A stretch of 64,000 nucleotides of DNA. Source: Escherichia phage AnYang. Below the pieces are notes generated by a model. It was not told the origin of the DNA. It saw nothing but the letters and a program-made list of their open reading frames with translations, and made no database searches. The position numbers and the translations under genes were made by a program. Below, in pieces: positions 1,445 to 39,083 of the stretch (positions are counted from its first letter, which is position 1; each line of letters begins with the position of its first letter). The DNA is taken from the sequence record MK234886. One strand, written 5' to 3'.

Positions 1445-3123
1445 TCCATCACCGTGAATCGTCCAACTTTCTTCATCTGAAGATGTTGGCCATAAGCTTG
1501 TGGGTCATGGTCTCGGTGAGAGATAATGAACACGTTCGTATCCTCAAGGCTATTCAAGATGGTTGCAATGGTCTTAACGCCTTCAGCGTCAGTAGCACTG
1601 TCAAATACCTCATCAAGAATTAACGTGCTGATATTAACACCTGATACCTTAGAAGCAATATCACGCCATGTAAAAAGGAGTGCGATATCAATACGTGCTT
1701 TCTCACCCTGTGAAAATGAAGCATAACTAAAGTCTTCACGTCCACGTGATTTAATCGTCTCATTGAACTCTTCGTCTAGTGTAAAGACGTAGTCGGCTTC
1801 CATAATCTTCAAATAAGAATTTATCTGCTTATTAAAGATAGGAATGTATTTCTTAATAATGGAACCTTTAATACCGGTATCCTTCAACATTTCTGTCAGA
1901 ATTCCACGATGATATTTTTCCATTACCAAGGACGATTTGGTAGAGACGATTTTATCAAGCTCTGCTTGAAGCGTGGCAATCTCTTCGGCATTACTTACGA
2001 ACTCAGCAGCTGCTTGGTCAATTAATACTTTAACCTTTTTAGCTTTCTCTACAGCAGTAATGGCTTGTTGCTTATGAGTAGCTATCTGAGATTTAATGGC
2101 CAGCGCTTTATTACGTTGTTCGGTTACTTGGTCCTTAATGAGCTTGAGTTCTTGGTACTGCTCATTAATCTTATCCAAAGATTTTTGAAGCTCAAAGTTC
2201 TTATCCTTAATTTTAGTAAGGATGTTTCCATGCTCTTCCAGTCCTTGCATACATGTAGGACAACTACCACCGGTTTCGTATAATTTCACGACCTTAGTAA
2301 AGGTTGCCATATCATTCTTGATTGCAAATCCTTTATTGCTCAGGTCACTCATAGAGTCGCTAGGGTCATCATCGACTATGACATTGAGTAATTCATCAGT
2401 TAGTTTTTCTATATTGCCCTTCGCAGTCCTGGCTTCTTTAACGAGCTCGTCATACATTACTTGTAGACGTGCAGCGTTCTCACCAGATAATTTACGCTGG
2501 CGTTCTTCGTTGTCATTATAAATTTTAATCTGTTGGGTAATAGAATCCTGTTTAACGTCGATTACTTGGATTTGGCTATTAGTCTCACGAATCAAAGATT
2601 TGTTCAACTTGTCCATATCCGCTAATACAGAAACCTCTAACAGGTCTTCCACAAGCTTTCGGCGCGCAGGGGTCGACAAACCCATGAAAGGGGTATACCC
2701 TGCTGTACCAAGTACGACAATCTGTTTGAAACTGGCATATGACATTCCGATAAGCTGTTCAAATTCTGCTTGGAAGTCTTTACTGCTGGCAGATTCATCA
2801 AGACGTTCACCGCCACAAGAGATTTCAAAAATATTGGGTTTTTGCCCGCGTTTGATATAGTATTCTTTGCCATCATATTCCATCCACAGTTCGACCAAAA
2901 GGTCTTTCTTATTACTTGAGTTAATCAACTGCCCTTTCTTAACATCACGAAAAGGCTTACCGAACAGAGCAAATGTAACGGCTTCAAGGAACGTAGATTT
3001 CCCAGCGCCATTTTTACCCGTGACTAAGGTCTTTTGGACCTTATCAAGTTGGATTGTAATAGGTTGCTGGCCTACCGACATAATATTTTTATATGTTACT
3101 TTCTTTAACTTAAAAGTCTTCAT
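1441..3123 (-). CDS. 46: recombination endonuclease subunit gp46 (Rad50/SbcC-like ATPase)
   Basis: Walker A GKNGAGKST, Walker B LILDEVFD, coiled-coil middle; start set to MKTFKL as in T4 (560 aa). Confidence 0.93.
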   Translation of the reverse strand: MKTFKLKKVTYKNIMSVGQQPITIQLDKVQKTLVTGKNGAGKSTFLEAVTFALFGKPFRDVKKGQLINSSNKKDLLVELWMEYDGKEYYIKRGQKPNIFEISCGGERLDESASSKDFQAEFEQLIGMSYASFKQIVVLGTAGYTPFMGLSTPARRKLVEDLLEVSVLADMDKLNKSLIRETNSQIQVIDVKQDSITQQIKIYNDNEERQRKLSGENAARLQVMYDELVKEARTAKGNIEKLTDELLNVIVDDDPSDSMSDLSNKGFAIKNDMATFTKVVKLYETGGSCPTCMQGLEEHGNILTKIKDKNFELQKSLDKINEQYQELKLIKDQVTEQRNKALAIKSQIATHKQQAITAVEKAKKVKVLIDQAAAEFVSNAEEIATLQAELDKIVSTKSSLVMEKYHRGILTEMLKDTGIKGSIIKKYIPIFNKQINSYLKIMEADYVFTLDEEFNETIKSRGREDFSYASFSQGEKARIDIALLFTWRDIASKVSGVNISTLILDEVFDSATDAEGVKTIATILNSLEDTNVFIISHRDHDPQAYGQHLQMKKVGRFTVME

Positions 3124-3373
3124 CGTTATAAGCATCCTTGATGCATGATTCAGCCATATGAATTAATGTTTCTGGAGTATCATCTACCATTACATTAAAG
3201 CTAAATTCCACAGCCCAATCAGTAGCAACATAAACTTTAATAAGCTCGTTGGTATCACGAGTGCTCACGGCTTCAAACCAGAACTTAATGACACTCGTTT
3301 GGTTATCGTCATCAATAACGATACAGTCGTGTTCTAGTTCAAGGCCTGATTTTTTGAATTCATCTAAAGTCAT
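3110..3373 (-). CDS. hypothetical protein (gp46.1 position)
   Basis: 87 aa ORF wedged between 47 and 46 with ATGA overlap. Confidence 0.5.
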   Translation of the reverse strand: MTLDEFKKSGLELEHDCIVIDDDNQTSVIKFWFEAVSTRDTNELIKVYVATDWAVEFSFNVMVDDTPETLIHMAESCIKDAYNDEDF

Positions 3374-4392
3374 CGTGTAACCTCATTATAAAGTTGTGCA
3401 GCCATAGTCTTAAGGGCTTTAACATCGTCTTCAGTGTGGCCGTCAGGAAGGGCATCGATATAATCATACATCATATCCAAGAGGGACTTAACTTCATCTT
3501 CCTCTTCAGAATCATCGATATCAACACTGTTATCTACCTTAGACACAATACGTAAAGAATGGACAACCTTTTCAAGCTCTGATTCGAACTTAGTAAGGCC
3601 GTCATCAATTTTATCGACTATAACACGAACTGCGATATTTGTAAAATCTTTGTAATCGATAGTCGCGTTAGGATAATGAATCTTACGATGCCAACAGGTT
3701 TCATTGATGATGAAGTCCATCTTATGAGTTTCTGTATCGAAAATCCAGAAGCCGCGAGGGTCGTTCTCATCTCCAGCAGTCAGGGTCCATGGCGTACCAA
3801 TATATTTAACGTTTGCTGCATCAGAAATAGTGTGGAAGTGGCCTGACCAAACTTGCTTATACTTCTTAAGGAAATCAGGTTCTAAACCATGAGATTTCAT
3901 TCCTTTATAGAAATAAAAACCATTTAATTCCCAGTGGCCAATACAAAAGTCTGCTGTGGTATTTTTGATATGGTCCATGATATCAGTCGTGTTTTCTTCA
4001 CACATCCATGGAATCAAATCAATTTCGGTGCCATCAAAGTTAACAGTAGTAGGTTTCTCAATAACCTTGATATGGTCATATTTACCCAGAACTTCAGAAG
4101 CAGCGTTCGGAGTCAAGGTATTTTTGTAGTGCATATCATGGTTGCCAACAATGGTATACATGGTGATGCCGTTGGCTTTAAGCAAATCGGAGATTTCGCG
4201 AGCGAATTCCATGCACTTGTGGGTAATTGCTTTACGGACATCAAAGATATCGCCGTACTGAATCCATACAGTAATACCATTTGCTTTAGAATAATCAATA
4301 GCGTCTTGGATACCTTGACGTTGGATATTTTGTACCCATACATCATCGGCCTTAACTCCAAGGTGCCAATCACCTGTGTTTAATATTTTCAT
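3370..4392 (-). CDS. 47: recombination endonuclease subunit gp47 (Mre11/SbcD-like)
   Basis: 340 aa; phosphoesterase motifs GDWHLG, GDIFD, GNHD. Confidence 0.93.
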   Translation of the reverse strand: MKILNTGDWHLGVKADDVWVQNIQRQGIQDAIDYSKANGITVWIQYGDIFDVRKAITHKCMEFAREISDLLKANGITMYTIVGNHDMHYKNTLTPNAASEVLGKYDHIKVIEKPTTVNFDGTEIDLIPWMCEENTTDIMDHIKNTTADFCIGHWELNGFYFYKGMKSHGLEPDFLKKYKQVWSGHFHTISDAANVKYIGTPWTLTAGDENDPRGFWIFDTETHKMDFIINETCWHRKIHYPNATIDYKDFTNIAVRVIVDKIDDGLTKFESELEKVVHSLRIVSKVDNSVDIDDSEEEDEVKSLLDMMYDYIDALPDGHTEDDVKALKTMAAQLYNEVTR

Positions 4393-4437
4393 AATATCCT
4401 CGCTTAATTAAACCTATTTTATCATCCATTCAGAAAG

Positions 4438-4462
4438 CAAAAAAGGAGCCTAAGCTCCTTTA
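4438..4462 (-). terminator. hairpin plus U-tract on minus strand
   Basis: AAAGGAGC-TTAG-GCTCCTTT stem followed by T-run on minus strand. Confidence 0.35.
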
Positions 4463-4623
4463 CCAACTAATACACCATACAGAGGTTCACGATTAGACGT
4501 GAACTTGATTTTCTTATAGGTAATAGTACCTTCATTTTCTGCTTTAATACGAGCGGCTTCAAATTGAAGAATCATCTCGTTTTTGTCAGATTTAATCTTA
4601 TCAAAATCCGTCGAATTCGTCAT
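4450..4623 (-). CDS. hypothetical small protein (57 aa, below ORF-track cutoff)
   Basis: ATG with AAGAGG SD; stop lies inside the hairpin; hand-translated. Confidence 0.3.
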   Translation of the reverse strand: MTNSTDFDKIKSDKNEMILQFEAARIKAENEGTITYKKIKFTSNREPLYGVLVGKGA

Positions 4624-4681
4624 TCATACAACCTCTTAAACTTTTTCGTATTCGTCTTTCATTAGCCACCGGTCCATGTTA

Positions 4682-4882
4682 TCATCGTTGCCACCATTTC
4701 TTAAGTTGGTGTGAATCCACCCAAACCTTGGCTACAGGCTCAATCTGAAAAATACCATCAGAATATTGACCCATCATTTTGTATTCGGTTTCGGTCTGCT
4801 TAATACAAATATTACCATATGAGCGAAGTCTAAAGGCGGCTCCAATAAGAAGCCGTTTAAAAGGTTTATTTACTAGAGCCAT
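4682..4882 (-). CDS. hypothetical protein
   Basis: 66 aa ORF, ATG start, minus-strand gene tiling. Confidence 0.35.
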   Translation of the reverse strand: MALVNKPFKRLLIGAAFRLRSYGNICIKQTETEYKMMGQYSDGIFQIEPVAKVWVDSHQLKKWWQR

Positions 4883-5177
4883 TGACGATTTCCCAAATTT
4901 GTTTGCGGGTAGATTCCCACATCAATTGAACAAGTTCATCAGTAACAGGTTGACGGTAAATACCGCGTAATTTAATTAAAGCGTACTTATATGCTTCAAA
5001 GTTGTTTTCAAGTACAGCGCCTTGGGCATGGAGATTTAAACGACGGATTTCACGAGCATTCTTCTTAAGAATCTTAGCCGCTTGAGAATTAGCTTCTTTA
5101 ATATTGTGCTCTTCTAAACGTTGCTGGGCTTCTTCAATTTGCTCATCAGTCAATTGAGAAATGTCGTGGCTTTGCAT
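4866..5177 (-). CDS. hypothetical protein
   Basis: 103 aa, AAAGGAT SD, abuts upstream gene stop. Confidence 0.5.
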   Translation of the reverse strand: MQSHDISQLTDEQIEEAQQRLEEHNIKEANSQAAKILKKNAREIRRLNLHAQGAVLENNFEAYKYALIKLRGIYRQPVTDELVQLMWESTRKQIWEIVNGSSK

Positions 5178-5178
5178 A

Positions 5179-5409
5179 TTAATCCTTTGGAGTCAATTCA
5201 ATAGTGAAGTAGAAATTAGCGTTCTCGACATGATAACGATAATCTACGTTATTGTCAGGGGAAGTGAATTCAATATTCCTGACGTTAAGTGGGTCAATAT
5301 CAATAGGAAGGCCTTTAACATCCCGTAATATCAATTTAATAAAATATGGGAGTGCTTCGAAGTCTTCCATTCCATCTAAAAGTGGAGTGATATTAATCTG
5401 ATGTTCCAT
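5179..5409 (-). CDS. hypothetical protein (start uncertain)
   Basis: ORF 5179-5445 overlaps gp55 3' end; internal ATG at 5409 or 5370 more likely. Confidence 0.4.
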
Positions 5410-5950
5410 ATAAAAAATCCAGTTCACCAACTTTAGGTTCGGCACTCTTATCAGACCCTGGTGCTTTAGTTAAAGAGGTTTCATACTGAGTCATTTTGTC
5501 ATAGATATCTTGGATAAAGGTTTCATCTGCAATACCTACCATGTCGTCATCATTACTGTCATAGACATTATGGACGAAGTAGCTATATTTCTTTGCCATT
5601 TCTTTACGTTCTTTCTTGATACGCTGAACGAAGGCATTAAAACAAGCCATAGTGATATATGCATGTGGGTTGTCGTATTTTGTTTCGTCGAAGTTGTGAA
5701 GACCTTTAATCGAAGCTTCGATTCCGTCAGCAATCATTTCTTGCTTCCAAGATTGGGTATATCCTGAGAAGTTGAAACGTTTACTTAGTCCTTCAGCAAT
5801 GAGCATAATAGCCAAGCCAATAACATCGTTCTGTCGAACTATTTTATTAGGATCGGTATTTTCTCTGAGCTCTGTTTTCCATTGGGTAATAGCTTTAAGA
5901 AGCTCCTTATTATTTACATAGTTATTTTTAGTCAGTTTAATTTCGGTCAT
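5393..5950 (-). CDS. 55: late-transcription sigma factor gp55
   Basis: 185 aa; strong similarity to T4 gp55 as recalled (NYVNNKELL...[48 protein letters not shown]). Confidence 0.93.
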
Positions 5951-6016
5951 TGTTACCTCAGATAACTCAAATCATAGGTCTATTATATCATGGTATTTGA
6001 AGACCCTTTTAAAGCA

Positions 6017-6280
6017 TCAACGGAGTAAGCAATAAGCCTGAAATACTGTTTCAAGGATTTTTTTGAACTCTTCAAAGGAAGGAGCTCCTTCAAACCCTTG
6101 GCTTTGAATGTAAAGACAGAATTGTTGGTAAAGGGCCAAATATTCACGATGGTTGTATTTGGAAATATGAGACTTCCATACTTCAGAAGTCTCACCACAA
6201 ACAAACTCAACATCCATACAGTTATCTATTAAGAAAAATCCGAGACCTTCGTAGGCGAGGGTAGTGGATACAGGGGTCAT
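6017..6280 (-). CDS. hypothetical protein
   Basis: 87 aa ORF, ATGA-coupled to upstream gene. Confidence 0.5.
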   Translation of the reverse strand: MTPVSTTLAYEGLGFFLIDNCMDVEFVCGETSEVWKSHISKYNHREYLALYQQFCLYIQSQGFEGAPSFEEFKKILETVFQAYCLLR

Positions 6281-6543
6281 TGTAGGAACCGAGCTCCTTC
6301 TAGTGCGTCATCAAGATTATCAAACTCATCGACGTAATCAACACCGCCAACTTCATCCTTCGCATAAAGCCAGTACTGTTTAAATTCGTATTCGATGATA
6401 AAGTGGTCACCCTCAATCTGGAGAGTCCCATCACCATTAAATTGAACTGCATAACCTGTAAAGCGGACATCATTCAAGAGTTCTTCTTTCATAGCAATCA
6501 TTTCCAAGTTTTTATCGTAATTAGAGAGTTTTATTTTAATCAT
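6277..6543 (-). CDS. hypothetical protein
   Basis: 88 aa ORF in tiled minus-strand operon. Confidence 0.5.
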   Translation of the reverse strand: MIKIKLSNYDKNLEMIAMKEELLNDVRFTGYAVQFNGDGTLQIEGDHFIIEYEFKQYWLYAKDEVGGVDYVDEFDNLDDALEGARFLQ

Positions 6544-6784
6544 TCAAATAATCCTCAAATTCATTTAATGTCATGCCTTCATCCCAAGCTATTTTTGGGT
6601 CAGGCATTTTCATATAAGTGGTTTTAGAGCTTATAGGAAATATCCTGAAATCACGATGACTTCCACTTAGCATCTTAGCCGCTTTTATAATAGTTTCAAT
6701 ATTATTCATCATGGGTGTACGTTGGAACCCGGCTAAAGCTTTAAGGACTATTATAACCGATACACCCTCAGGCAAATTATTCAT
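6536..6784 (-). CDS. hypothetical protein
   Basis: 82 aa ORF in tiled minus-strand operon. Confidence 0.5.
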   Translation of the reverse strand: MNNLPEGVSVIIVLKALAGFQRTPMMNNIETIIKAAKMLSGSHRDFRIFPISSKTTYMKMPDPKIAWDEGMTLNEFEDYLND

Positions 6785-7110
6785 TTAGCTGCCTTAACAA
6801 TTTTCAGGTCGACGAATTTTTTCTTACGTTGGTTTTTCATACGACGGATAGTTTTATCCGTGATTTCACCAGGGCACCAAGCTTTGGATTCAACACCAAA
6901 GGCAGCGACATCGAATTCATCAAGGATATATTGAACCAGGATTTCACGAATACCGTTCTTACCAATTTTCTGGTCTTTAGAGTGCATGATAGGTAACAGC
7001 TCAGCAACCCATTGGTCGAGAATTTCAGGAGTCACAAAACCTGTTTTCATCAGTTCGTTTACTTTATCGAAAGCGAAAGAGTTCAGTACGTTTTTAATAG
7101 CTTGTGACAT
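6781..7110 (-). CDS. hypothetical protein
   Basis: start moved to internal ATG (MSQAIKN) with AAGGAAA SD, downstream of the early promoter at 7150-7179. Confidence 0.5.
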   Translation of the reverse strand: MSQAIKNVLNSFAFDKVNELMKTGFVTPEILDQWVAELLPIMHSKDQKIGKNGIREILVQYILDEFDVAAFGVESKAWCPGEITDKTIRRMKNQRKKKFVDLKIVKAAK

Positions 7111-7149
7111 AATAATTTCCTTAGTTTTAAAGTTATAATCCGTAGGACC

Positions 7150-7179
7150 ATTATACTCTGGTCCCAAGAGTTTGTAAAC
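7150..7179 (-). promoter_or_regulatory. T4-type early promoter (GTTTAC -35, TATAAT -10) with flanking inverted repeat
   Basis: minus strand GTTTAC-N18-TATAAT; GGGACCA/TGGTCC arms flank the -10. Confidence 0.5.
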
Positions 7180-7379
7180 TATTTTTGTGCTTTGGCGCCT
7201 TTCCAACCTTCGAACATCATTGCTGCGGAAATTAACAAAGCACCCGAGCAACTTGAATATTTGTGATTCCAAAACCAGTTTAGAAAAACTTCGTCATCAA
7301 TACCTTGAGCTATCATATTTTCAAAGAACTGACGACGAGCTTCAGCAATTCGCTGTGATAATTTAGATTCAGGATTCAT
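7179..7379 (-). CDS. hypothetical protein
   Basis: 66 aa ORF, ATG start. Confidence 0.4.
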   Translation of the reverse strand: MNPESKLSQRIAEARRQFFENMIAQGIDDEVFLNWFWNHKYSSCSGALLISAAMMFEGWKGAKAQK

Positions 7380-7511
7380 TTAAATTTTCCAGTTTCCGTG
7401 TTTATCAATGAATTTAATCCAGTCATTTACTGACCACGTGGTTGTATCGCCTTTTGGAGCCACATTTAAAGTATATAACCCTTGCTTAAAAAGCATTCGT
7501 TTGATATTCAT
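7380..7511 (-). CDS. hypothetical small protein (43 aa from internal ATG)
   Basis: GAGGAAA SD before ATG at 7511; the longer ORF would overlap the upstream gene. Confidence 0.3.
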   Translation of the reverse strand: MNIKRMLFKQGLYTLNVAPKGDTTTWSVNDWIKFIDKHGNWKI

Positions 7512-7518
7512 ATTTTCC

Positions 7519-7812
7519 TCAGCTGTAACGATAACATTCGTTTGATTTACGTTTTGCAACTTGATGAGAAGTATTGTAATCAGGTTCATCGTCGTTGTAA
7601 ACATCTTTTTTCAGCTTTCTCACTTCTTTACGAAGCTGGCGATTCATTTCGTTCTTAACTTCAGAATCAACACCGCGCATACGTTTCCACTTGTCAGAAC
7701 GGAAGATATTTTCTTCAACCAAATCCTGACTTACGCCGTCCGGTGCTTTACGACGTCCGGAATAATAAAAATCTTTTACAGACAATTCTTTACGACGGAT
7801 AGTTTTACCCAT
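7519..7812 (-). CDS. hypothetical basic protein
   Basis: 97 aa, Lys/Arg-rich, GAGGTAA SD. Confidence 0.5.
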   Translation of the reverse strand: MGKTIRRKELSVKDFYYSGRRKAPDGVSQDLVEENIFRSDKWKRMRGVDSEVKNEMNRQLRKEVRKLKKDVYNDDEPDYNTSHQVAKRKSNECYRYS

Positions 7813-7814
7813 AG

Positions 7815-8069
7815 TTACCTCAGCAGTTTGTATCCAATAAGATTTTTAATGTATTGGACATCTTTGACATCCAAATCCAACTTAATATCTTTCAGGCGTT
7901 CGGCCAGAGTAAGAAATGTTACGCGTTTCCAATTCTTAACAGGACAGCAATAAGTTTTCGGGCCATTAGCGATTTCAATATTCTTATCAGTGATGGTGAT
8001 AAAAATCAAACGTTCATCATCAAGATTAAGGGTGACTACATTTTTCATTGAATGTAATTTCAGGCTCAT
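7815..8069 (-). CDS. hypothetical protein
   Basis: 84 aa ORF, ATGA-coupled. Confidence 0.5.
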   Translation of the reverse strand: MSLKLHSMKNVVTLNLDDERLIFITITDKNIEIANGPKTYCCPVKNWKRVTFLTLAERLKDIKLDLDVKDVQYIKNLIGYKLLR

Positions 8070-8242
8070 AATTTGATTTCCTTAGCTATCGAACAAAATA
8101 CAGCACGGTCACAAATCATTTTAATATTAAGCTCAATTACGGTATACCACACATCCAGGCTAGATATTTCAGTTACTAGAACAGCTTTGCCGTTGATTGA
8201 ATAATACTGGTTGACTTTAATTTCTTTATCTTGGATAGTCAT
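8066..8242 (-). CDS. hypothetical small protein (58 aa, below ORF-track cutoff)
   Basis: GAGGAGAA SD, ATGA overlap with downstream gene, early promoter upstream; hand-translated. Confidence 0.45.
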   Translation of the reverse strand: MTIQDKEIKVNQYYSINGKAVLVTEISSLDVWYTVIELNIKMICDRAVFCSIAKEIKL

Positions 8243-8272
8243 AATGTTCTCCTCATGTGTTGATAGGATAGA

Positions 8273-8300
8273 CTATAACACGTGAGGAGAGGAAGTAAAC
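8273..8300 (-). promoter_or_regulatory. T4-type early promoter
   Basis: minus strand GTTTAC ... TTATAG upstream of the 58 aa ORF. Confidence 0.4.
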
Positions 8301-8301
8301 A

Positions 8302-8619
8302 CTAATCTTCAATTAAATCTTGGTCATAGCCAAGTTCAATCAAAAGTGATTTGAAGGCAGGAATATTTTCTATTTTCTTATTATCGACAAAGATGACAGG
8401 ATAGCGTATCGCTAAGCTCTTGAAGCCTGCACGTTTGGCCAATGATACTATAAGAGGCTTGTCATATACTGCGCCTGACGGCGTCTGGTTAATCACAGGA
8501 TAGAAAGTATGTGGGATAGAAAGGGAATTTAGGAGCGATAGAACTGCAATGCACCCTGGACAGCGCATGACTGTCTCAGGGATACCGTAAATCTCAATTT
8601 TAGTTAACTTTTGGTCCAC
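8302..8619 (-). CDS. glutaredoxin/thioredoxin-like redoxin (CPGC motif)
   Basis: 105 aa; IEIYG...CPGC active-site-like motif; GTG start with AAGGAG SD. Confidence 0.5.
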   Translation of the reverse strand: MDQKLTKIEIYGIPETVMRCPGCIAVLSLLNSLSIPHTFYPVINQTPSGAVYDKPLIVSLAKRAGFKSLAIRYPVIFVDNKKIENIPAFKSLLIELGYDQDLIED

Positions 8620-8896
8620 AGGAAATAACTCCTTGGTAGTCCCAGGTTTTTAGAACTTCGTCCTCAGTAGTTCCATACGGGACGTAAATCTGAATAAGAA
8701 AACCAGTGTCATCGAAAGAGAAATAAACAGTCGGTTTAATACCATGAATCTCTGACAGGGCATAGATGTCCTTGAGGTCTTCTTCCTTACCGACAAAGAA
8801 TTCCGGGTTCAGGTCACAGTCATGGAAGTACCAATCATCACCGAATTTGTCCCATGCGGTCCAATTGGTAGCTACATATTCTTCAAAACGTTTCAT
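8600..8896 (-). CDS. hypothetical protein
   Basis: 98 aa ORF. Confidence 0.5.
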   Translation of the reverse strand: MKRFEEYVATNWTAWDKFGDDWYFHDCDLNPEFFVGKEEDLKDIYALSEIHGIKPTVYFSFDDTGFLIQIYVPYGTTEDEVLKTWDYQGVISCGPKVN

Positions 8897-9108
8897 TCTT
8901 TCACCTTCATCATTTTGGAAATAACACCATGAACAGACTGGATTCGTTTTTCGAACTCAGACCCTTCAAGACCTTTTTCAGTACTCAGGGCACCAATAAT
9001 CACAAACAGCAATCCAAATGGGATGACCAGGATTAAAAGGCACACGATAAACAGGGCAAATGTAATATTGGCCAGGATATCGGAAACAGCATTACGAAAT
9101 TTGTTCAT
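8893..9108 (-). CDS. small membrane protein
   Basis: hydrophobic core; start at internal ATG coupled (TAATG) to the upstream micro-ORF. Confidence 0.45.
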   Translation of the reverse strand: MNKFRNAVSDILANITFALFIVCLLILVIPFGLLFVIIGALSTEKGLEGSEFEKRIQSVHGVISKMMKVKE

Positions 9109-9233
9109 TAAAGAACCCACATGTTAGTTACAACAAATAACCATTGAGCAGGATACTCAACACCCATAATACGCACCGCATCGTTCAGAGATTCGGCTAA
9201 AGCATAAAATGTGTAGCCATAAAAATTAATCAT
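9108..9233 (-). CDS. micro-ORF (41 aa) translationally coupled between gene 49 and the downstream gene
   Basis: ATGA overlap with gp49 stop and TAATG overlap with next start; hand-translated. Confidence 0.3.
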   Translation of the reverse strand: MINFYGYTFYALAESLNDAVRIMGVEYPAQWLFVVTNMWVL

Positions 9234-9703
9234 TTAAGCGATTTCCTCAGTTGTTTTTTAAACGAATCGACCATTTGTTTCTTAGTGGCAGATTCATTAT
9301 AAGTCATTCCATGTGAAAGCATTTCAGCAATCATTTCTTCCTTACCCAACCTGCTGAACTCTTTGGTTTTATCAGGAACGAAATTAGGATGAATATTGTT
9401 TTCAGTATAATCAGCTTTCAGATAGACAAGCAAATTCTCTAACCATTCGAGGTAGTCAACGTTTTGACCTTTAAGACCAGAACGGTTGAACTTATGCTTC
9501 ATTTGTCCTTCTGCAGCATTGCACAGGTTACATAGTAAACCACGAACCTTACCGGCTTTTGGCCCATTTAACTCGTGGTCGTGGTCAAGGTGGTTACTTT
9601 GAACATCAGGGTTTAATTCACGTTTACAAATCAAACACTTACCACATTGTGCATCATAAAGTTTTTGTTTTTCTTCTTTGTATAATTTGCCGGTCAACAA
9701 CAT
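9230..9703 (-). CDS. 49: endonuclease VII (Holliday junction resolvase) gp49
   Basis: 157 aa; near-identical to T4 EndoVII as recalled, with Cys-rich zinc site and HLDHDH motif. Confidence 0.95.
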   Translation of the reverse strand: MLLTGKLYKEEKQKLYDAQCGKCLICKRELNPDVQSNHLDHDHELNGPKAGKVRGLLCNLCNAAEGQMKHKFNRSGLKGQNVDYLEWLENLLVYLKADYTENNIHPNFVPDKTKEFSRLGKEEMIAEMLSHGMTYNESATKKQMVDSFKKQLRKSLK

Positions 9704-9738
9704 AATAAACCCTTACCATTATTAGATAAGGGTATTTA

Positions 9739-9924
9739 TTATTTTTCAAATGTACTATAGAACGAACGATGCAACCGTTTAAATTGACGAATCATCTTTT
9801 TGGTAGGGCGAGTATACAATCCTACACAGGTGGCCATAAACTGGTCGGTAGGACTTCCTTTGATAAGAAGTTTCCAGACCTTACTGCCATCCAACTTTTC
9901 GGTATAAACCAGTACAGTTTTCAT
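9739..9924 (-). CDS. hypothetical protein
   Basis: 61 aa ORF. Confidence 0.4.
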   Translation of the reverse strand: MKTVLVYTEKLDGSKVWKLLIKGSPTDQFMATCVGLYTRPTKKMIRQFKRLHRSFYSTFEK

Positions 9925-10097
9925 CAGAACGCCTTATCAGCAAAGCGAAGTTGAGCTTCAAGCCAATGAATATAATCGGCTGCAGCTTTAATCAAATCGG
10001 ATTCTAAGTCAGGTAAAGAACCTGAATCCGACAACTCGTAAAGCGAATGTTCAATAAGACGGCCTTTATGGCGACCAATTTCAATTTTGGTACTCAT
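9924..10097 (-). CDS. hypothetical protein (start uncertain)
   Basis: ORF-track ATG at 10139 lies inside the promoter -10; internal ATG with GGAG SD chosen. Confidence 0.35.
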   Translation of the reverse strand: MSTKIEIGRHKGRLIEHSLYELSDSGSLPDLESDLIKAAADYIHWLEAQLRFADKAF

Positions 10098-10137
10098 ATC
10101 CAAACTCCATATCGATGAAATCATTGTTTGAAGGTTC

Positions 10138-10167
10138 ATTATACTCTATTTCGGAATCGTTGTAAAC
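10138..10167 (-). promoter_or_regulatory. T4-type early promoter
   Basis: minus strand GTTTAC-N18-TATAAT preceded by a GCTCGGT/ACCGAGC hairpin. Confidence 0.45.
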
Positions 10168-10213
10168 CGGTTCCTCTGGCTCGGTAGTTTCCCACCGAGC
10201 GACATACCATGGC

Positions 10214-10522
10214 TTAACGGTCACACCACCAACTCGATACTTCAAAATCGGGTTCACCATCTTCCCAGTACCAAGGACCTACTGGATGCCAATCGCCATG
10301 TTCATCTTCTTCAAATTCTTCAGATTCAAGCCCAACGTATTGCCATTGGACTTCATAAGCAGTACCACCGATTACAACGGTGTTCTCACCGTATGGGTGA
10401 GCTACAGCAAAGTCAATACCTTCTGCTTTAGCCAGCCAAACCATATATTCGTATAGTTTATATTCCAGGTCATCTTCGGTACCATCACCTAGAAAAATAG
10501 TCTGTTCATTTAATTCAATCAT
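10214..10522 (-). CDS. hypothetical acidic Trp-rich protein
   Basis: 102 aa ORF, ATGA-coupled to nrdC. Confidence 0.5.
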   Translation of the reverse strand: MIELNEQTIFLGDGTEDDLEYKLYEYMVWLAKAEGIDFAVAHPYGENTVVIGGTAYEVQWQYVGLESEEFEEDEHGDWHPVGPWYWEDGEPDFEVSSWWCDR

Positions 10523-10782
10523 TTGAAATACGCTCTCAGCTGGTCAAACCCACCAATATGACTTCCGTCTGGAGCGAATACCTGAGGCATAGTCAAACCT
10601 ACCTGAGATTCACGTCCAAGAGCAGCCAAGAGTTCGGCAATCTTCTCATCATCAAATACACCTTTTTCAGGCATCACGTTAATGAATTCGTAAGGTTGTT
10701 TCTTAACATCAAGCAGACGTTTGGCATTATCACAGAAAACACAACGGTGAATATTTGAATCGTAACCATAAACTTTAAACAT
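10519..10782 (-). CDS. nrdC: thioredoxin NrdC
   Basis: 87 aa; CVFCDNAK active site; near-identical to T4 NrdC as recalled. Confidence 0.92.
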   Translation of the reverse strand: MFKVYGYDSNIHRCVFCDNAKRLLDVKKQPYEFINVMPEKGVFDDEKIAELLAALGRESQVGLTMPQVFAPDGSHIGGFDQLRAYFK

Positions 10783-14952: not shown

Positions 14953-15294
14953 CTAATAGAAACTTTTTTCACCTGCTTGTCCACTAAACCACACTGATTG
15001 GGTGTTCTCTTTCCGTTGGTGTTCAATACGAATGCGATATTCATTCCTGATGGCACAGAGTTCACCTCGGAAGTCGCCTGTCAACTTTACCTGCTTGTGG
15101 TCTAGATTTATTAAGGCCTGAGTCTTAGCTGCCAAGGCCAGTCTCTTATAGTCTCCTTCTTCACAATCGGTTTTATAAACCTTCTCGGCGAATTTGTATT
15201 TAAATTCATTATCATAGTCCTCGACGGACTGTTTCATGGCATTAGAGTACTTCAACTCTGCTTTTATAAGGTCATAACTAAATTGTTCAAACAT
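14953..15294 (-). CDS. hypothetical protein (113 aa)
   Basis: ORF with AAGGTG SD. Confidence 0.5.
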   Translation of the reverse strand: MFEQFSYDLIKAELKYSNAMKQSVEDYDNEFKYKFAEKVYKTDCEEGDYKRLALAAKTQALINLDHKQVKLTGDFRGELCAIRNEYRIRIEHQRKENTQSVWFSGQAGEKSFY

Positions 15295-15304
15295 AATTTC
15301 ACCT

Positions 15305-16297
15305 TTATTTCAGAAGGGTAACTTCAGCAATTTCGTTCCAGTCATTTTTATCGGTGGCAATGAAGTCCGCCAGATAAAGAGCTGTACGTAATGATACGTT
15401 ACGAAGACGAGATACATTAGCCTTCATCCATGCTAAAGCTTGATAAGTCTCAGCATCAGTCAGACCTCGATTTTGCATCATATCAGTGGACAGGATAACG
15501 TCTTCAACACGAACCATAATCTCTTCGTTCGAGTGAACTCCGAGGTCTAAGTAAACTGAACGAGATACTAAAGCCTGGAGGTGTGGAGCAAGTTTAGTTC
15601 CACGTTCTAATTCACGGTCAATATCAACGTTGGTGATGAATACGATGGTGCCTTCGTATTCGAATTCTTTATCGATATTTTTATCATCGAGGTAAGAACT
15701 TGAAGTGCTCCAGCACACCTTACGTTTTTCACCAGTATCTAATGCCGCTTTTAACAGGTTCAGGATATCCATATCAGAGAATACATCAACATCATCGATA
15801 AGAAGAACACTATTAGGGCCGCGGTTATTCCAAAGCTGCTCGTAAAGACCGATTCCACTAATCTTTCCGTTGATTGATTTATATTCGATAGTTTCATTTT
15901 CGTGGGCATTCTGTAATGCTTTATCCAAAGAATATGTTTTACCAATACCTGCGGCACCAGAGATGATAAGGGAACGAATTTTACCATCGATGATTCCGTT
16001 AGTCATCATGTTCATTACTTTAAAACGTTTGTTGATGCGATGTTTCATTTCTTCAGAGGATTCAGTAACAACTGCAGGAGCTTCAGCACCTTCCATTTCA
16101 ACGTCACATTTGAACACCCATACACCACGTTCAACACCATCAATCTGTACGAATACCTTGCCATCACCGAGGTGAGCTTCGGATTCATGAATTTTATTAG
16201 GGAACCAGGTTTTACCTGAACTCATGAACGTACCAGAGATTTCATTACCGCGATAGATACCTTTGTTGATTTTGATAGTTAACATTATATTCTCCAT
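15305..16297 (-). CDS. AAA-type P-loop ATPase
   Basis: Walker A GAAGIGKT, Walker B VLLIDDVD; ORF-track ATG at 16324 lies inside the promoter -10, so start moved to the next ATG. Confidence 0.7.
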   Translation of the reverse strand: MENIMLTIKINKGIYRGNEISGTFMSSGKTWFPNKIHESEAHLGDGKVFVQIDGVERGVWVFKCDVEMEGAEAPAVVTESSEEMKHRINKRFKVMNMMTNGIIDGKIRSLIISGAAGIGKTYSLDKALQNAHENETIEYKSINGKISGIGLYEQLWNNRGPNSVLLIDDVDVFSDMDILNLLKAALDTGEKRKVCWSTSSSYLDDKNIDKEFEYEGTIVFITNVDIDRELERGTKLAPHLQALVSRSVYLDLGVHSNEEIMVRVEDVILSTDMMQNRGLTDAETYQALAWMKANVSRLRNVSLRTALYLADFIATDKNDWNEIAEVTLLK

Positions 16298-16323
16298 TTC
16301 ACTCAGTAGATTTGATAGGTCCA

Positions 16324-16351
16324 TAATAACATGCTCTACGAGGTTGTAAAC
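16324..16351 (-). promoter_or_regulatory. T4-type early promoter
   Basis: minus strand GTTTAC ... TATTAT. Confidence 0.45.
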
Positions 16352-16357
16352 TACTTT

Positions 16358-16365
16358 TATAAATA
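16358..16365 (+). promoter_or_regulatory. T4 late promoter TATAAATA
   Basis: exact TATAAATA 22 nt upstream of the collagen-like gene ATG, followed by AGGAGAAGG SD. Confidence 0.5.
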
Positions 16366-16387: not shown

Positions 16388-17146
16388 ATGATTATATCAG
16401 CAAAAACCATCGATGAATTGAACGAGAAGGTCCAGTTAGCATTAGACGATAACTGGCATCTTTTTGGTTCAACGGTAGTCCTTCCTAATACTGTAACTGA
16501 TAACAGCGAACGATTCTTTCAAACGATGTCAAAATCAGTTACCCAGATTCCAGGACCTCCTGGACAAAAGGGCGATAAAGGCGATCCCGGGAATACCGGT
16601 GCCCCGGGAGTTCAAGGTGAACCAGGAAAGTCTTCATACCAATTATGGATTGATGAAGGTAATAGTGGAACAGTAGATGATTTTTTGACTGCAACAGCAG
16701 GAAAGAGAAGAAAATCAGAAGTGTTTTGGACTGGACTAAACATTGCACTGCAGTCTGGAGCGACGGTTAATCTTATTGAAATATTAAAATCAACTCCTCC
16801 AACATTCGGAATTCTTGAACCATTCTTCAAAGTGTCTGACAATAAACTTTGGCCATTTAATGAAGACAGAACATTGAATTTCAAACTAAATTTAACCGGA
16901 GCATTTGCGGGCCCGTCGCAGGCAAGAAGCATAACATTAAATTTTGTTGGAACAAATGGAAATACTTTAATACAAAGCAGACCGGAAGGTAATGTAACTG
17001 ACGTGCTGTCATTTAACACATTTTTCAGTGTTGATAAAAATGGAGTAATGACAACTAATGGGACAGCAGTAACTTTAACTGCTAATGGAGGGACTTTTAC
17101 AATAAACTCAGTTCTACTTGTTGCTGAACAAACTGTTACAACATAA
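16388..17146 (+). CDS. collagen-like repeat protein (G-x-y triple-helix segment plus Thr/Asn-rich C-terminal domain)
   Basis: 252 aa; GPPGQKGDKGDPGNTGAPGVQGEPGKS; strong SD; only plus-strand gene in the early region; own terminator. Confidence 0.7.
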   Translation: MIISAKTIDELNEKVQLALDDNWHLFGSTVVLPNTVTDNSERFFQTMSKSVTQIPGPPGQKGDKGDPGNTGAPGVQGEPGKSSYQLWIDEGNSGTVDDFLTATAGKRRKSEVFWTGLNIALQSGATVNLIEILKSTPPTFGILEPFFKVSDNKLWPFNEDRTLNFKLNLTGAFAGPSQARSITLNFVGTNGNTLIQSRPEGNVTDVLSFNTFFSVDKNGVMTTNGTAVTLTANGGTFTINSVLLVAEQTVTT

Positions 17147-21870: not shown

Positions 21871-22062
21871 TTAAAGACTATTTACATAAGCTATTAATTC
21901 ATTTTCTTTCTCATCAAATCGATTGGCAAATTCTTCCTGATGTTCGGGAGATAGTGGGCCGTATTCATCATAAAAGGCGTTTGCTTCTGTATGCTCGTCC
22001 AAAAGCTCATGGATAAGCTCAAACAATTTATCTTTCTGTTCTTTACTCAGACTCATAACCAT
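21871..22062 (-). CDS. hypothetical protein
   Basis: ORF-track start is TTG; ATG with AAAGGTG SD chosen. Confidence 0.4.
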   Translation of the reverse strand: MVMSLSKEQKDKLFELIHELLDEHTEANAFYDEYGPLSPEHQEEFANRFDEKENELIAYVNSL

Positions 22063-22265
22063 TGCACCTTTAAGCAATATTCTTCTACATGCTGTTTACG
22101 TTTATTTTTATCTATAAAAGTATATTCAACGTATTCACCGATATACCATTTATCGGTGTTGTGTTGACTTTTTATAGGGCATTTAGTTACTCGGGTTTCG
22201 GTCCAGCGTCGAATAATTTCCGCTTTGTTTTTAGGGTCAAACGGATGCGGGTAATGGGCTTTCAT
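22053..22265 (-). CDS. hypothetical protein
   Basis: 70 aa ORF. Confidence 0.4.
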   Translation of the reverse strand: MKAHYPHPFDPKNKAEIIRRWTETRVTKCPIKSQHNTDKWYIGEYVEYTFIDKNKRKQHVEEYCLKVQWL

Positions 22266-22704
22266 AATCTACCACCACTAAATTAATATCAGGAGTAAAC
22301 AAATTAATCAATTGATAAACCTTGTCCCAATCACCACCAGCAATACCACAACCAATGCGAGGAATATAAATTCTTGGTTTAAACAAAAGACCTTTTGCGG
22401 TACGGTTTAATTCTATCATACAGTTTACTAAAGCACCGTAATCAAGATTAGGGCCTGGTTCGTATTGGGTGTATAAATTATAGCAAATTTGCCCATTATT
22501 ACCTGTGGCTTGAGTAAACGTGCCAAGTTTTTCCAAATGGCCTAAATAAGTGGTTTTATCGATAGCGAGAATAGGCGGATAAGCCTTAGCTAATTGCCCG
22601 GCTACACCTGAACCCATTGTGTGGAAACAGTTGCACCCGTGTGCAACATTATTACCTTGAAGAAACAGGGCGACAATATCGCCCTTAATATAATCAATAA
22701 TCAT
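22237..22704 (-). CDS. macro-domain-like protein (possible ADP-ribose binding or hydrolase)
   Basis: 155 aa; VAHGCNC...MGSGVAGQ and RIGCGIAGGDW resemble macro-domain glycine-rich loops. Confidence 0.5.
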   Translation of the reverse strand: MIIDYIKGDIVALFLQGNNVAHGCNCFHTMGSGVAGQLAKAYPPILAIDKTTYLGHLEKLGTFTQATGNNGQICYNLYTQYEPGPNLDYGALVNCMIELNRTAKGLLFKPRIYIPRIGCGIAGGDWDKVYQLINLFTPDINLVVVDYESPLPASV

Positions 22705-23057
22705 TTAGAGTTTAATCCTCGATTGTATGAATCAACGAGTCTGTCTACCATAGACGCGCACATTTCTTTGTACTTTTTATCAGATGGAACACATTCAGTA
22801 ACATTTAGACGTTGCTCGTACCTTTTAGAAAGAGTTTTCTCTTTCATTCTGCGATGCTCTACGTCGTTCTGTCCATCTTTAAAAGCCGCTGTGATTTTTG
22901 AACTGAATTCGATAACACATTCAGTATTACTTGGATGACAATAATCTTTTGCTGTGCGGGTAGCATACTCAACAATTGAATTATTGCTATCATCAACTTG
23001 TGACGCTAATACTCCCGGAGCGATCAACATAAGCGCTATAGTCATCTGCTTAATCAT
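22701..23057 (-). CDS. secreted/periplasmic protein
   Basis: 118 aa with N-terminal signal peptide. Confidence 0.5.
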   Translation of the reverse strand: MIKQMTIALMLIAPGVLASQVDDSNNSIVEYATRTAKDYCHPSNTECVIEFSSKITAAFKDGQNDVEHRRMKEKTLSKRYEQRLNVTECVPSDKKYKEMCASMVDRLVDSYNRGLNSK

Positions 23058-38225: not shown

Positions 38226-38300
38226 TGGTATCCCGCCCTGGGATCGAACCAGGACCGCAAACTTAGAAGGATCGTATGCTATCCATTACACCAGCGGGAC
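38226..38300 (-). tRNA. tRNA-Arg (anticodon UCU)
   Basis: hand-folded cloverleaf: acceptor GTCCCGC/GCGGGAT, T-arm CCTGG-TTCGATC-CCAGG, anticodon loop CTTCTAA, encoded CCA. Confidence 0.8.
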
Positions 38301-38305
38301 GTAAT

Positions 38306-38971
38306 TCAAAATTTTATTTTACGGCCTTTATTCCAACCTTCAGGAATAATATCCGTTTTGTTAATACGTTTAGAAACTTTTTCTTCTAAAGAATGAATCC
38401 ACATTTTTCCATATCCGGAATTATTTTCACCTTGTTGGTGTTTATTTCTGGCGTGAGATTCTTTCATTTTATTTTTGGTTTCATCTGAATGGGTCTTACC
38501 CAAGAAAGATTTAGTATTTGAAAATTTCTCTCTATACTTAGGATTATCCCAAAGTTGTTTAAACCTTTCTGAACCCATTTTACGATATTTTTCTTTAAGG
38601 TCTGGGTCGTTCTCAAATCTGGTTTTAAAAGCGGCAACTCCTTTTAAGGAAGCTTCTTTCTTTTTATCTAAATATTCTTCAGTGTTTAAATGGTCCCAAC
38701 CACCTTCACCGCCTAATTTCAAATTATAAACATCGGGGCGCTTTAAAAACTCTTCAGTCACAATATTCTTTTCTGACTCAAACATAGAGATTTTATCGTC
38801 AAAGAACTCTAATATTTCTTTAGAGAAATTTTCTATACCGTATTTGGCCTGGGCCCTTTTCAAGAGTTTACCGGAACCAAAATATGCATCATTCAAATTT
38901 TCGGTTGAATGGGCTCCTATATAGATTTTATTATTAATTTTGTTTGTTATTTTATAAGTGTAATGGAACAT
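38306..38971 (-). CDS. segB: GIY-YIG homing endonuclease (SegB-like)
   Basis: 221 aa; N-terminal YKITNKINNKIYIG GIY-YIG motif; sits between the two tRNA genes. Confidence 0.8.
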   Translation of the reverse strand: MFHYTYKITNKINNKIYIGAHSTENLNDAYFGSGKLLKRAQAKYGIENFSKEILEFFDDKISMFESEKNIVTEEFLKRPDVYNLKLGGEGGWDHLNTEEYLDKKKEASLKGVAAFKTRFENDPDLKEKYRKMGSERFKQLWDNPKYREKFSNTKSFLGKTHSDETKNKMKESHARNKHQQGENNSGYGKMWIHSLEEKVSKRINKTDIIPEGWNKGRKIKF

Positions 38972-39012: not shown

Positions 39013-39083
39013 TGGCCCTGGGTGGAATCGAACCACCATCCAGCGATTATGAGTCGCTCGCTTGACCGTCCAGCTACAGGGCC
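39013..39083 (-). tRNA. tRNA with CAU anticodon (Ile-lysidine type or Met)
   Basis: hand-folded cloverleaf: acceptor GGCCCTG/CAGGGCC, anticodon stem AGCGA/TCGCT, loop CTCATAA, T-arm GGTGG-TTCGATT-CCACC; CCA not encoded. Confidence 0.7.

Follow-up and report, generated by a model that had tools for sequence, protein, structure and literature searches.

The 64,000-nt stretch of Escherichia phage AnYang considered here (sequence record MK234886; this whole stretch is called the window below) includes the block between genes 47 and 49 in which phage T4 carries its alpha-glucosyltransferase gene, a-gt, and the genes of its anaerobic ribonucleotide reductase (RNR), nrdD and nrdG. Two T4 cassettes, 47.1/a-gt/mobB and nrdG/mobC/nrdD, are missing from this block. 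Based on our results, we are confident that the block is an ordinary Dhakavirus 47-55-49 early/middle region, collinear with that of T4, which lacks both cassettes and has its empty a-gt slot in common with RB69-like phages. The absences are not peculiar to this phage: they are the standard gene content of Dhakavirus and Gaprivervirus, and the empty a-gt slot is standard in RB69-like phages as well. Both have already been published, the lack of glucosyltransferases by Petrov (2010) and the restriction to a class I RNR by Dwivedi (2013).

Gene content between genes 47 and 49

On nucleotide identity and gene order, the window (G+C ~39% over the 64 kb) is placed as a genome segment of a Dhakavirus of the JS98/IME08/C6 type (Straboviridae, Tevenvirinae). 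Its nucleotide identity to the Dhakavirus phages C6, IME341, IME08, WG01, QL01, JS10 and JS98 is 91-96%. Over positions 3000-10000 the closest relatives are C6 (96.1%), IME341 (95.6%) and IME08 (94.9%), with other Dhakavirus phages at 91-95% over these 7 kb; over positions 20000-44000 the values are 92.5% for JS10 and 91.8% for JS98. Positions 31,986-96,475 of C6 are collinear with the entire window, from gene 45 through the neck genes, so that the window has both marks of the genus, being highly similar in nucleotide sequence to its recognised members and collinear with them. An identical sequence was not among the records of the phage collection.

To place the genes, T4 gene sizes and positions were taken from NC_000866, the anchor genes were located by tblastn of T4 proteins against the window, and the minus-strand open reading frames (ORFs) were compared by blastp with the proteins that T4 encodes in the syntenic region. 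The left anchor is gene 47, encoding an SbcD-like recombination endonuclease subunit (3370..4392; 71% identity with T4 gp47 over 339 amino acids (aa), E=4e-163), and the right anchor is gene 49, encoding endonuclease VII (9230..9703; 87% identity with T4 gp49 over 157 aa, E=3e-93). Gene 55, for the late sigma factor, lies between them (5393..5950; 79% identity with T4 gp55 over 185 aa, E=2e-96), and all three are on the minus strand. The 47-to-49 interval corresponds exactly to 4393..9230. Within it the T4 gene order is kept: 47, a-gt.2, a-gt.3, a-gt.4, a-gt.5, 55, 55.1-55.6, nrdH, 55.8 and 49. The 47-55 interval measures 1,000 bp and contains only homologs of a-gt.2, a-gt.3, a-gt.4 and a-gt.5 (57, 66, 103 and ~76 aa), and the 55-49 interval, of 3,279 bp, consists of small genes throughout. 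The likeness to T4 (Tequatrovirus) thus covers the backbone order and nearly all of the small genes of the interval, whose products are 41-88% identical, whereas T4 has in addition 47.1/a-gt/mobB (2.3 kb) and nrdG/mobC/nrdD with the I-TevII intron (4.05 kb). An earlier reading of the letters of this DNA (the original prediction) had proposed that a-gt and nrdD/nrdG are absent from their T4 positions, which the tblastn anchors and the blastp comparison of the interval ORFs bear out. It had also put every ORF between 55 and 49 at 105 aa or less; only small genes are indeed found there, but the 55.2 homolog is of ~109 aa (the mechanically called ORF, 6781..7272, has 163 aa and begins at an upstream TTG), a difference that is immaterial.

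The search was then widened to the 64 kb of the window. By tblastn, the best match of T4 a-gt (400 aa) had E=0.46, T4 b-gt (351 aa) and T6 beta-alpha-gt (279 aa) gave zero matches, T4 NrdD (exons joined, ~603 aa) and T4 NrdG (156 aa) reached E=0.52 and E=0.33 at best, and the RB69 NrdD and NrdG queries gave nothing at E<0.01. The window therefore holds no ORF homologous to a-gt, b-gt or beta-alpha-gt that would mark a T-even glucosyltransferase, nor the pair of NrdD and NrdG homologs that would mark a class III RNR. The largest ORF of the early region has 345 aa, as against ~600 aa for NrdD. Pfam detected no glycosyltransferase family in ten larger early-region ORFs, among them all those of at least 250 aa between gene 49 and the gene 1/gene 2 block. 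We considered the large hypothetical ORFs of the nrdC-tk region as substitute transferases or reductases and rejected them, their Pfam matches being to DUFs shared with T4, an AAA/HTH protein, an RlaP nucleotidyltransferase and a tail-needle-knob protein.

The same holds for the closest complete relative. In the genome of C6 (~96% identical and collinear), queries from T4, T6 or RB69 found no homolog of alpha-gt, beta-gt, beta-alpha-gt, NrdD or NrdG, so that the possibility raised in the original prediction of a-gt, b-gt, nrdD or nrdG elsewhere is answered in the negative for the rest of the window and for the whole of C6. Our findings agree with the literature, in which JS98 and RB69 have homologs of genes 42 and 56 but no glucosyltransferase genes (Petrov 2010; PMC2993671), and JS98, JS10, IME08 and VR7 are tabulated as nrdB-nrdA, class I only (Dwivedi 2013, Table S1; PMC3653736). 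Both nrdA and nrdB are annotated in the C6 genome, and nrdC (thioredoxin) lies inside the window at 10519..10782, with 87% identity to T4. Dhakavirus JS98, JS10, IME08, C6, IME341, WG01 and QL01 have the same arrangement as the window, in the order 47, a-gt.2-5, 55, 55.x, nrdH, 55.8, a 41-aa ORF and 49, and without a-gt or nrdDG.

The slots of the two missing cassettes

In the window, a-gt.2 and gene 47 are separated by 57 nt without content (4393..4449, minus strand), which form the a-gt slot and are nearly identical in one independent metagenomic contig. The corresponding slot of T4 measures 2,283 nt and holds 47.1, a-gt and the HNH endonuclease gene mobB. Its length and content differ in other phages. 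RB69 (Mosigvirus) resembles the window in that gene 47 directly adjoins a-gt.2, in its lack of glucosyltransferases, and in its spacer, which is of 69 nt, has no content and shares a CCTTTTTTGCTTT...GGATGATAAAAT motif with that of the window. In C6 and others the slot is of ~196 nt and holds a well-conserved 47.1 homolog. In Salmonella phage SHP1 (KY979109.1) it extends to 891 nt with a free-standing 284-aa GIY-YIG-like ORF (15060..15914), and in IME08 it extends to 563 nt (2682..3244 of the IME08 stretch compared) and contains an unannotated, truncated homing endonuclease that is a 98.7%-identical copy of the SHP1 ORF. The SHP1 ORF was also considered as a glycosyltransferase and rejected, as it matches GIY-YIG weakly and resembles neither a-gt nor mobB. 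Among the Dhakavirus phages compared, the 57 nt of the window are the most reduced form of the slot. The a-gt.2 stop lies within a terminator-like hairpin (4461..4442, minus strand). The 47-a-gt.2 junction, used as a query, was contiguous in 82 phage records, including the Gapriverviruses VR5, VR26 and SP18. The slot looks like a variable insertion site. Because its content varies in this way (empty, 47.1, GIY-YIG, or a-gt with mobB), a-gt is best read as a cassette acquired specifically in the T-even phages, and the empty slot would not represent a loss in this phage.

In the window, the second slot is filled entirely by the 41-aa ORF (9108..9233, minus strand); it measures 4,053 nt in T4 and 2,395 nt in RB69. 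The 4-nt overlap of this ORF with the gene 49 stop is exactly that of nrdD in T4, which is why the ORF was tested as a remnant of the missing genes. Smith-Waterman scores against NrdD, NrdG, mobC, a-gt and mobB were at shuffle level (z from -1.05 to 1.16), and the idea was rejected. A query of 811 nt covering the junction from 55.8 through the 41-aa ORF to 49 was contiguous in 46 phage records, and the order 49, 41-aa ORF, 55.8 recurs in all six contigs whose gp49 is identical, two of which come from independent sequencing runs. NrdD itself occurs in 2,923 phage records; in Tequatrovirus, Mosigvirus, JD18-like and EcS1 phages its gene adjoins that of endonuclease VII. RB69 differs from the window here, having kept nrdG-nrdD between 55.8 and 49. 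As nrdG-nrdD adjoins 49 in T4, in RB69 and in several other T4-like genera, the absence of nrdDG is best read, from this distribution, as a deletion in the Dhakavirus/Gaprivervirus lineage.

DNA modification, nucleotide supply and competing explanations

The absence of glucosyltransferases should be seen next to a different modification system. The DNA of RB69 carries arabinosylated 5-hydroxycytosine, a modification shown for RB69 and DLP3; the RB69 ThyA homolog gp48 is a synthase of 5-hydroxy-deoxycytidine monophosphate (5-hydroxy-dCMP) that takes the hydroxyl oxygen from O2, and Dhakaviruses too have syntenic arabinosylation clusters (Lee 2026; PMC13326640). No homologs of the RB69-type arabinosylation proteins were found inside the 64 kb window. 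In C6 the cluster lies between uvsX and gene 43, ~5-10 kb upstream of the window's left end. There, the homolog of RB69 p046:047, the proposed first arabinosyltransferase, is a single 297-aa ORF (ORF42, 21899..22792 of the C6 stretch; 64-69% identity), and the homolog of the 5-hydroxy-dCMP synthase p048 is 79% identical to it, as against only 25% to T4 gp42. They are accompanied by homologs of the p045 kinase (37%), the p051 phosphatase (63%) and the bifunctional sugar kinase/nucleotidyltransferase p052:053 (41-44%). Pfam matches in the C6 cluster are Thymidylat_synt and NTP_transferase plus APH. IME08 gp43 has been described as a fused ORF053c/052c homolog (Thomas 2018; PMC6024577). The full-length cluster is conserved at 93% nucleotide identity or more in 50 records, including JS98, JS10 and IME08. 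RB69 and the Dhakavirus relatives are thus alike in having homologous cytosine arabinosylation clusters, and differ in that RB69 also has p003 (second arabinosyltransferase) and p055 (arabinose-5-phosphate isomerase), neither of which was found in C6. The difference from T4 is that T4 makes glucosyl-hydroxymethylcytosine via gp42, to which the Dhakavirus ThyA-family enzyme is so distantly related.

Two side observations concern the annotation of this cluster. C6 ORF42 is annotated in GenBank as an "RNA polymerase binding protein", and the 5-hydroxy-dCMP synthase homolog is labelled "thymidylate synthase" or "dCMP hydroxymethylase" in several Dhakavirus records. Judged from homology, these labels are probably misannotations.

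The original prediction had expected a phage without alpha-glucosylation and with an altered restriction sensitivity. The first part is consistent with the absence of glucosyltransferases from the window and from C6, but lightly modified, restriction-sensitive DNA is not what the relatives suggest, as they have the arabinosylation cluster. The DNA of this phage would be predicted to carry arabinosylated 5-hydroxycytosine, and not glucosyl-hydroxymethylcytosine, made by an RB69-type cluster outside the window; its restriction behaviour would differ from that of T4, and the DNA would not be unprotected. In the same way, a missing anaerobic RNR and an altered nucleotide metabolism had been proposed. 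The genes nrdD and nrdG are absent from the window and from C6, and JS98, JS10 and IME08 have class I only, yet this is the norm of the genus and not a peculiarity. Ribonucleotide reduction encoded by the phage would be carried out by the class Ia enzyme NrdAB with NrdC only, in addition to the host enzymes, and the anaerobic supply of deoxynucleoside triphosphates would depend on the host NrdDG.

Several points weigh against our interpretation as a whole. The genome-wide absence rests on relatives that are 91-96% identical, the window being ~38% of a genome of ~170 kb, and the direction of gain or loss is drawn from distribution and not from a reconstructed phylogeny. The DNA modification chemistry of Dhakavirus is predicted from homology and published synteny, and the C6 genome has no homologs of RB69 p003, p050 and p055, so that the sugar attached may not be exactly that of RB69.

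The share of the genome that falls outside the window leaves room for the idea that a-gt and nrdDG are present and have merely been relocated. We consider this very unlikely: none of the five proteins finds a match in complete C6, JS98, JS10 and IME08 are tabulated with class I RNR only, phages of the JS98 type are reported to lack glucosyltransferases, and nrdD adjoins gene 49 in other T4-like genera. It is less likely still, to the point of being hardly credible, that the genes lie in the interval in split, frameshifted, intron-interrupted or highly diverged form and were read as small ORFs, a case that the original prediction had itself allowed for. T4 does offer a precedent, with a group I intron in nrdD and homing endonucleases in both cassettes. 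The 1,000 bp between 47 and 55, however, are unable to hold a 1.2 kb gene, and most of the small ORFs are specific homologs of T4 small genes in T4 order. By tblastn, no fragments of NrdD, NrdG or a-gt, and none of exon size, were found in 4393..9230 even at E<=10, the 41-aa ORF is at shuffle level, and Rfam reports no group I intron and no other family over these positions, the window holding two tRNAs only, far away. A third possibility is a faulty assembly, or a deletion that this isolate alone underwent in the laboratory and that would be tolerable, since T4 needs neither a-gt nor nrdD and deletion mutants are viable. Against this, 46-82 independent phage records have the same junctions, as do contigs of metagenomic origin from unrelated sequencing runs. 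The 57-nt spacer recurs almost unchanged in an independent contig and is similar to that of RB69; there is practically no chance that both absences are accidents of one isolate.

A different kind of explanation accepts the absences and holds that the cytosine of the lineage is modified without a sugar (or unmodified), and that the lineage owes its survival to anti-restriction proteins. Petrov (2010; PMC2993671) left open that such proteins act in place of a sugar modification. In addition to the lack of p003, p050 and p055 homologs in C6, the putative arabinosyltransferase ORF42 has no Pfam match, and we found no direct chemical analysis of any Dhakavirus in the literature. On the other hand, ORF42 is 64-69% identical to p046:047, and the sugar-activation enzymes (the p051 and p052:053 homologs) are conserved across 50 genomes. 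In E. coli, KdsD and GutQ are arabinose-5-phosphate isomerases, so the host can supply this step. Finally, Lee (2026; PMC13326640) counts the Dhakaviruses among the lineages with a syntenic arabinosylation cluster. Taken together, we regard unglycosylated DNA as unlikely in this lineage, and favour the arabinosylation predicted above.

Why nrdDG should be dispensable invites speculation. One possible reason would be that NrdAB, which requires O2 for the formation of its radical, and the 5-hydroxy-dCMP synthase both need this gas: every phage-specific DNA-precursor step in the lineage would then be O2-dependent, and the loss of nrdDG would reflect relaxed selection in a phage that could not in any case go through a normal infection without oxygen. 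We find this unlikely, the link to oxygen being weak because RB69 keeps nrdDG, and because Gapriverviruses, which lack nrdDG, reportedly lack the ThyA-family modification gene too. If it were true, these gut-derived, therapy-candidate phages would replicate productively in oxygenated niches only.

The practical value of these results lies in annotation. We recommend that the annotation describe this phage as non-glucosylating and give its "gene 42" homolog, which lies outside the window, as a probable 5-hydroxy-dCMP synthase and not as a dCMP hydroxymethylase; T4 is no guide to the sensitivity of this phage to modification-dependent restriction or to its anaerobic behaviour, as in the gut. Their value as a discovery is small, since the absence of glucosyltransferases has been known since 2010, the class-I-only RNR since 2013, and RB69 arabinosylation together with the Dhakavirus synteny since 2026.

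Small genes of the interval and other features of the window

Every gene of the interval lies on the minus strand. Next to the empty a-gt slot lies the a-gt.2 homolog (4450..4623, 57 aa; 57% identity with its T4 counterpart, E=4e-20), followed by those of a-gt.3 (4682..4882, 66 aa; 43%, E=6e-16) and a-gt.4 (4866..5177, 103 aa; 41%, E=1e-23), the latter with a DUF2654 label that Pfam gives to genes in identical context. The a-gt.5 homolog is placed at 5179..5409 (~76 aa; 41%, E=2e-16); the mechanical ORF extends to 5445, the alignment starts from ORF residue 13, and relatives have 76-aa calls. Beyond gene 55, the homologs of T4 genes are 55.1 (6277..6543, 88 aa; 53%, E=6e-23), 55.2 (6781..7110; 65% from ORF residue 55, with 109-aa calls in relatives), 55.3 (7179..7379; 75%), 55.4 (7380..7511; 88%), 55.5 (7519..7812; 74%) and 55.6 (8066..8242, 58 aa; 57%). 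The glutaredoxin-like nrdH (8302..8619, 105 aa; 60% identity with T4 NrdH, E=3e-37) is kept despite the absence of nrdD and nrdG, and the 55.8 homolog (8893..9108, ~71 aa; 42%, E=2e-14) is a predicted membrane protein.

Five small ORFs of the interval are without a T4 counterpart. Two of the five are annotated in the syntenic positions of IME08 as RB69 ORF072c-like (6017..6280, 87 aa, labelled DUF7200 by Pfam in relatives) and RB69 ORF082c-like (8600..8896, 98 aa), and these extra ORFs are a further likeness between RB69 and the window. An 82-aa ORF (6536..6784) has no match to the T4 proteins of the region and corresponds to an 82-aa gene call in relatives, an 84-aa ORF (7815..8069) carries the Pfam label DUF7290 in relatives, and the 41-aa ORF has been described above. 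A promoter scan of the interval returned 17 promoter-like sites against 17.6 expected, which is chance level.

Just outside the two anchors the window also departs from T4, which possesses 46.1, 49.2 and a pin gene of full length. T4, RB69, IME08 and C6 all have 46.1 (DUF5487), but at 3110..3135 of the window it is missing, so that 46.2 directly adjoins 46; the megablast alignment to C6 is interrupted at this 46/46.2 boundary and skips C6 35,106-35,311. On the other side, 49.2 is absent from the window, and pin (161 aa in T4) is cut down to a 71-aa ORF (9924..10139, within the region 9739..10260) that matches residues 102-146 of T4 Pin only, while some relatives have a 100-aa, Inhibitor_I24-like version of pin.

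Further away, the only two tRNA genes of the window (38229..38300 and 39013..39083, minus strand) flank a 221-aa ORF for a GIY-YIG/NUMOD3 (seg-like) homing endonuclease (38306..38971, minus strand), and the alignment of the window to C6 is broken between 37,365 and 39,013. In the nrdC-tk region, a 339-aa ORF (15305..16324, minus strand), conserved in relatives as a 326-aa gene, has weak matches to an AAA/STAND-type NTPase and a C-terminal HTH_37, all below the Pfam cut-offs. On the opposite strand within this minus-strand early region lies a 252-aa ORF (16388..17146, plus strand), with a perfect T4 late-promoter box TATAAATA at 16358..16365 and a Shine-Dalgarno sequence upstream. It combines a collagen-like Gly-X-Y stretch with an Sf6-type tail-needle-knob domain (Pfam Phage_tail_NK, 3e-32). 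Its C6 counterpart has only 81% aa identity, where the flanks are ~93-96% identical at the nucleotide level; it is absent from five other Dhakavirus contigs and occurs at full length in only 41 phage records. Its product is probably a variable, late-expressed trimeric fibre/knob accessory protein.

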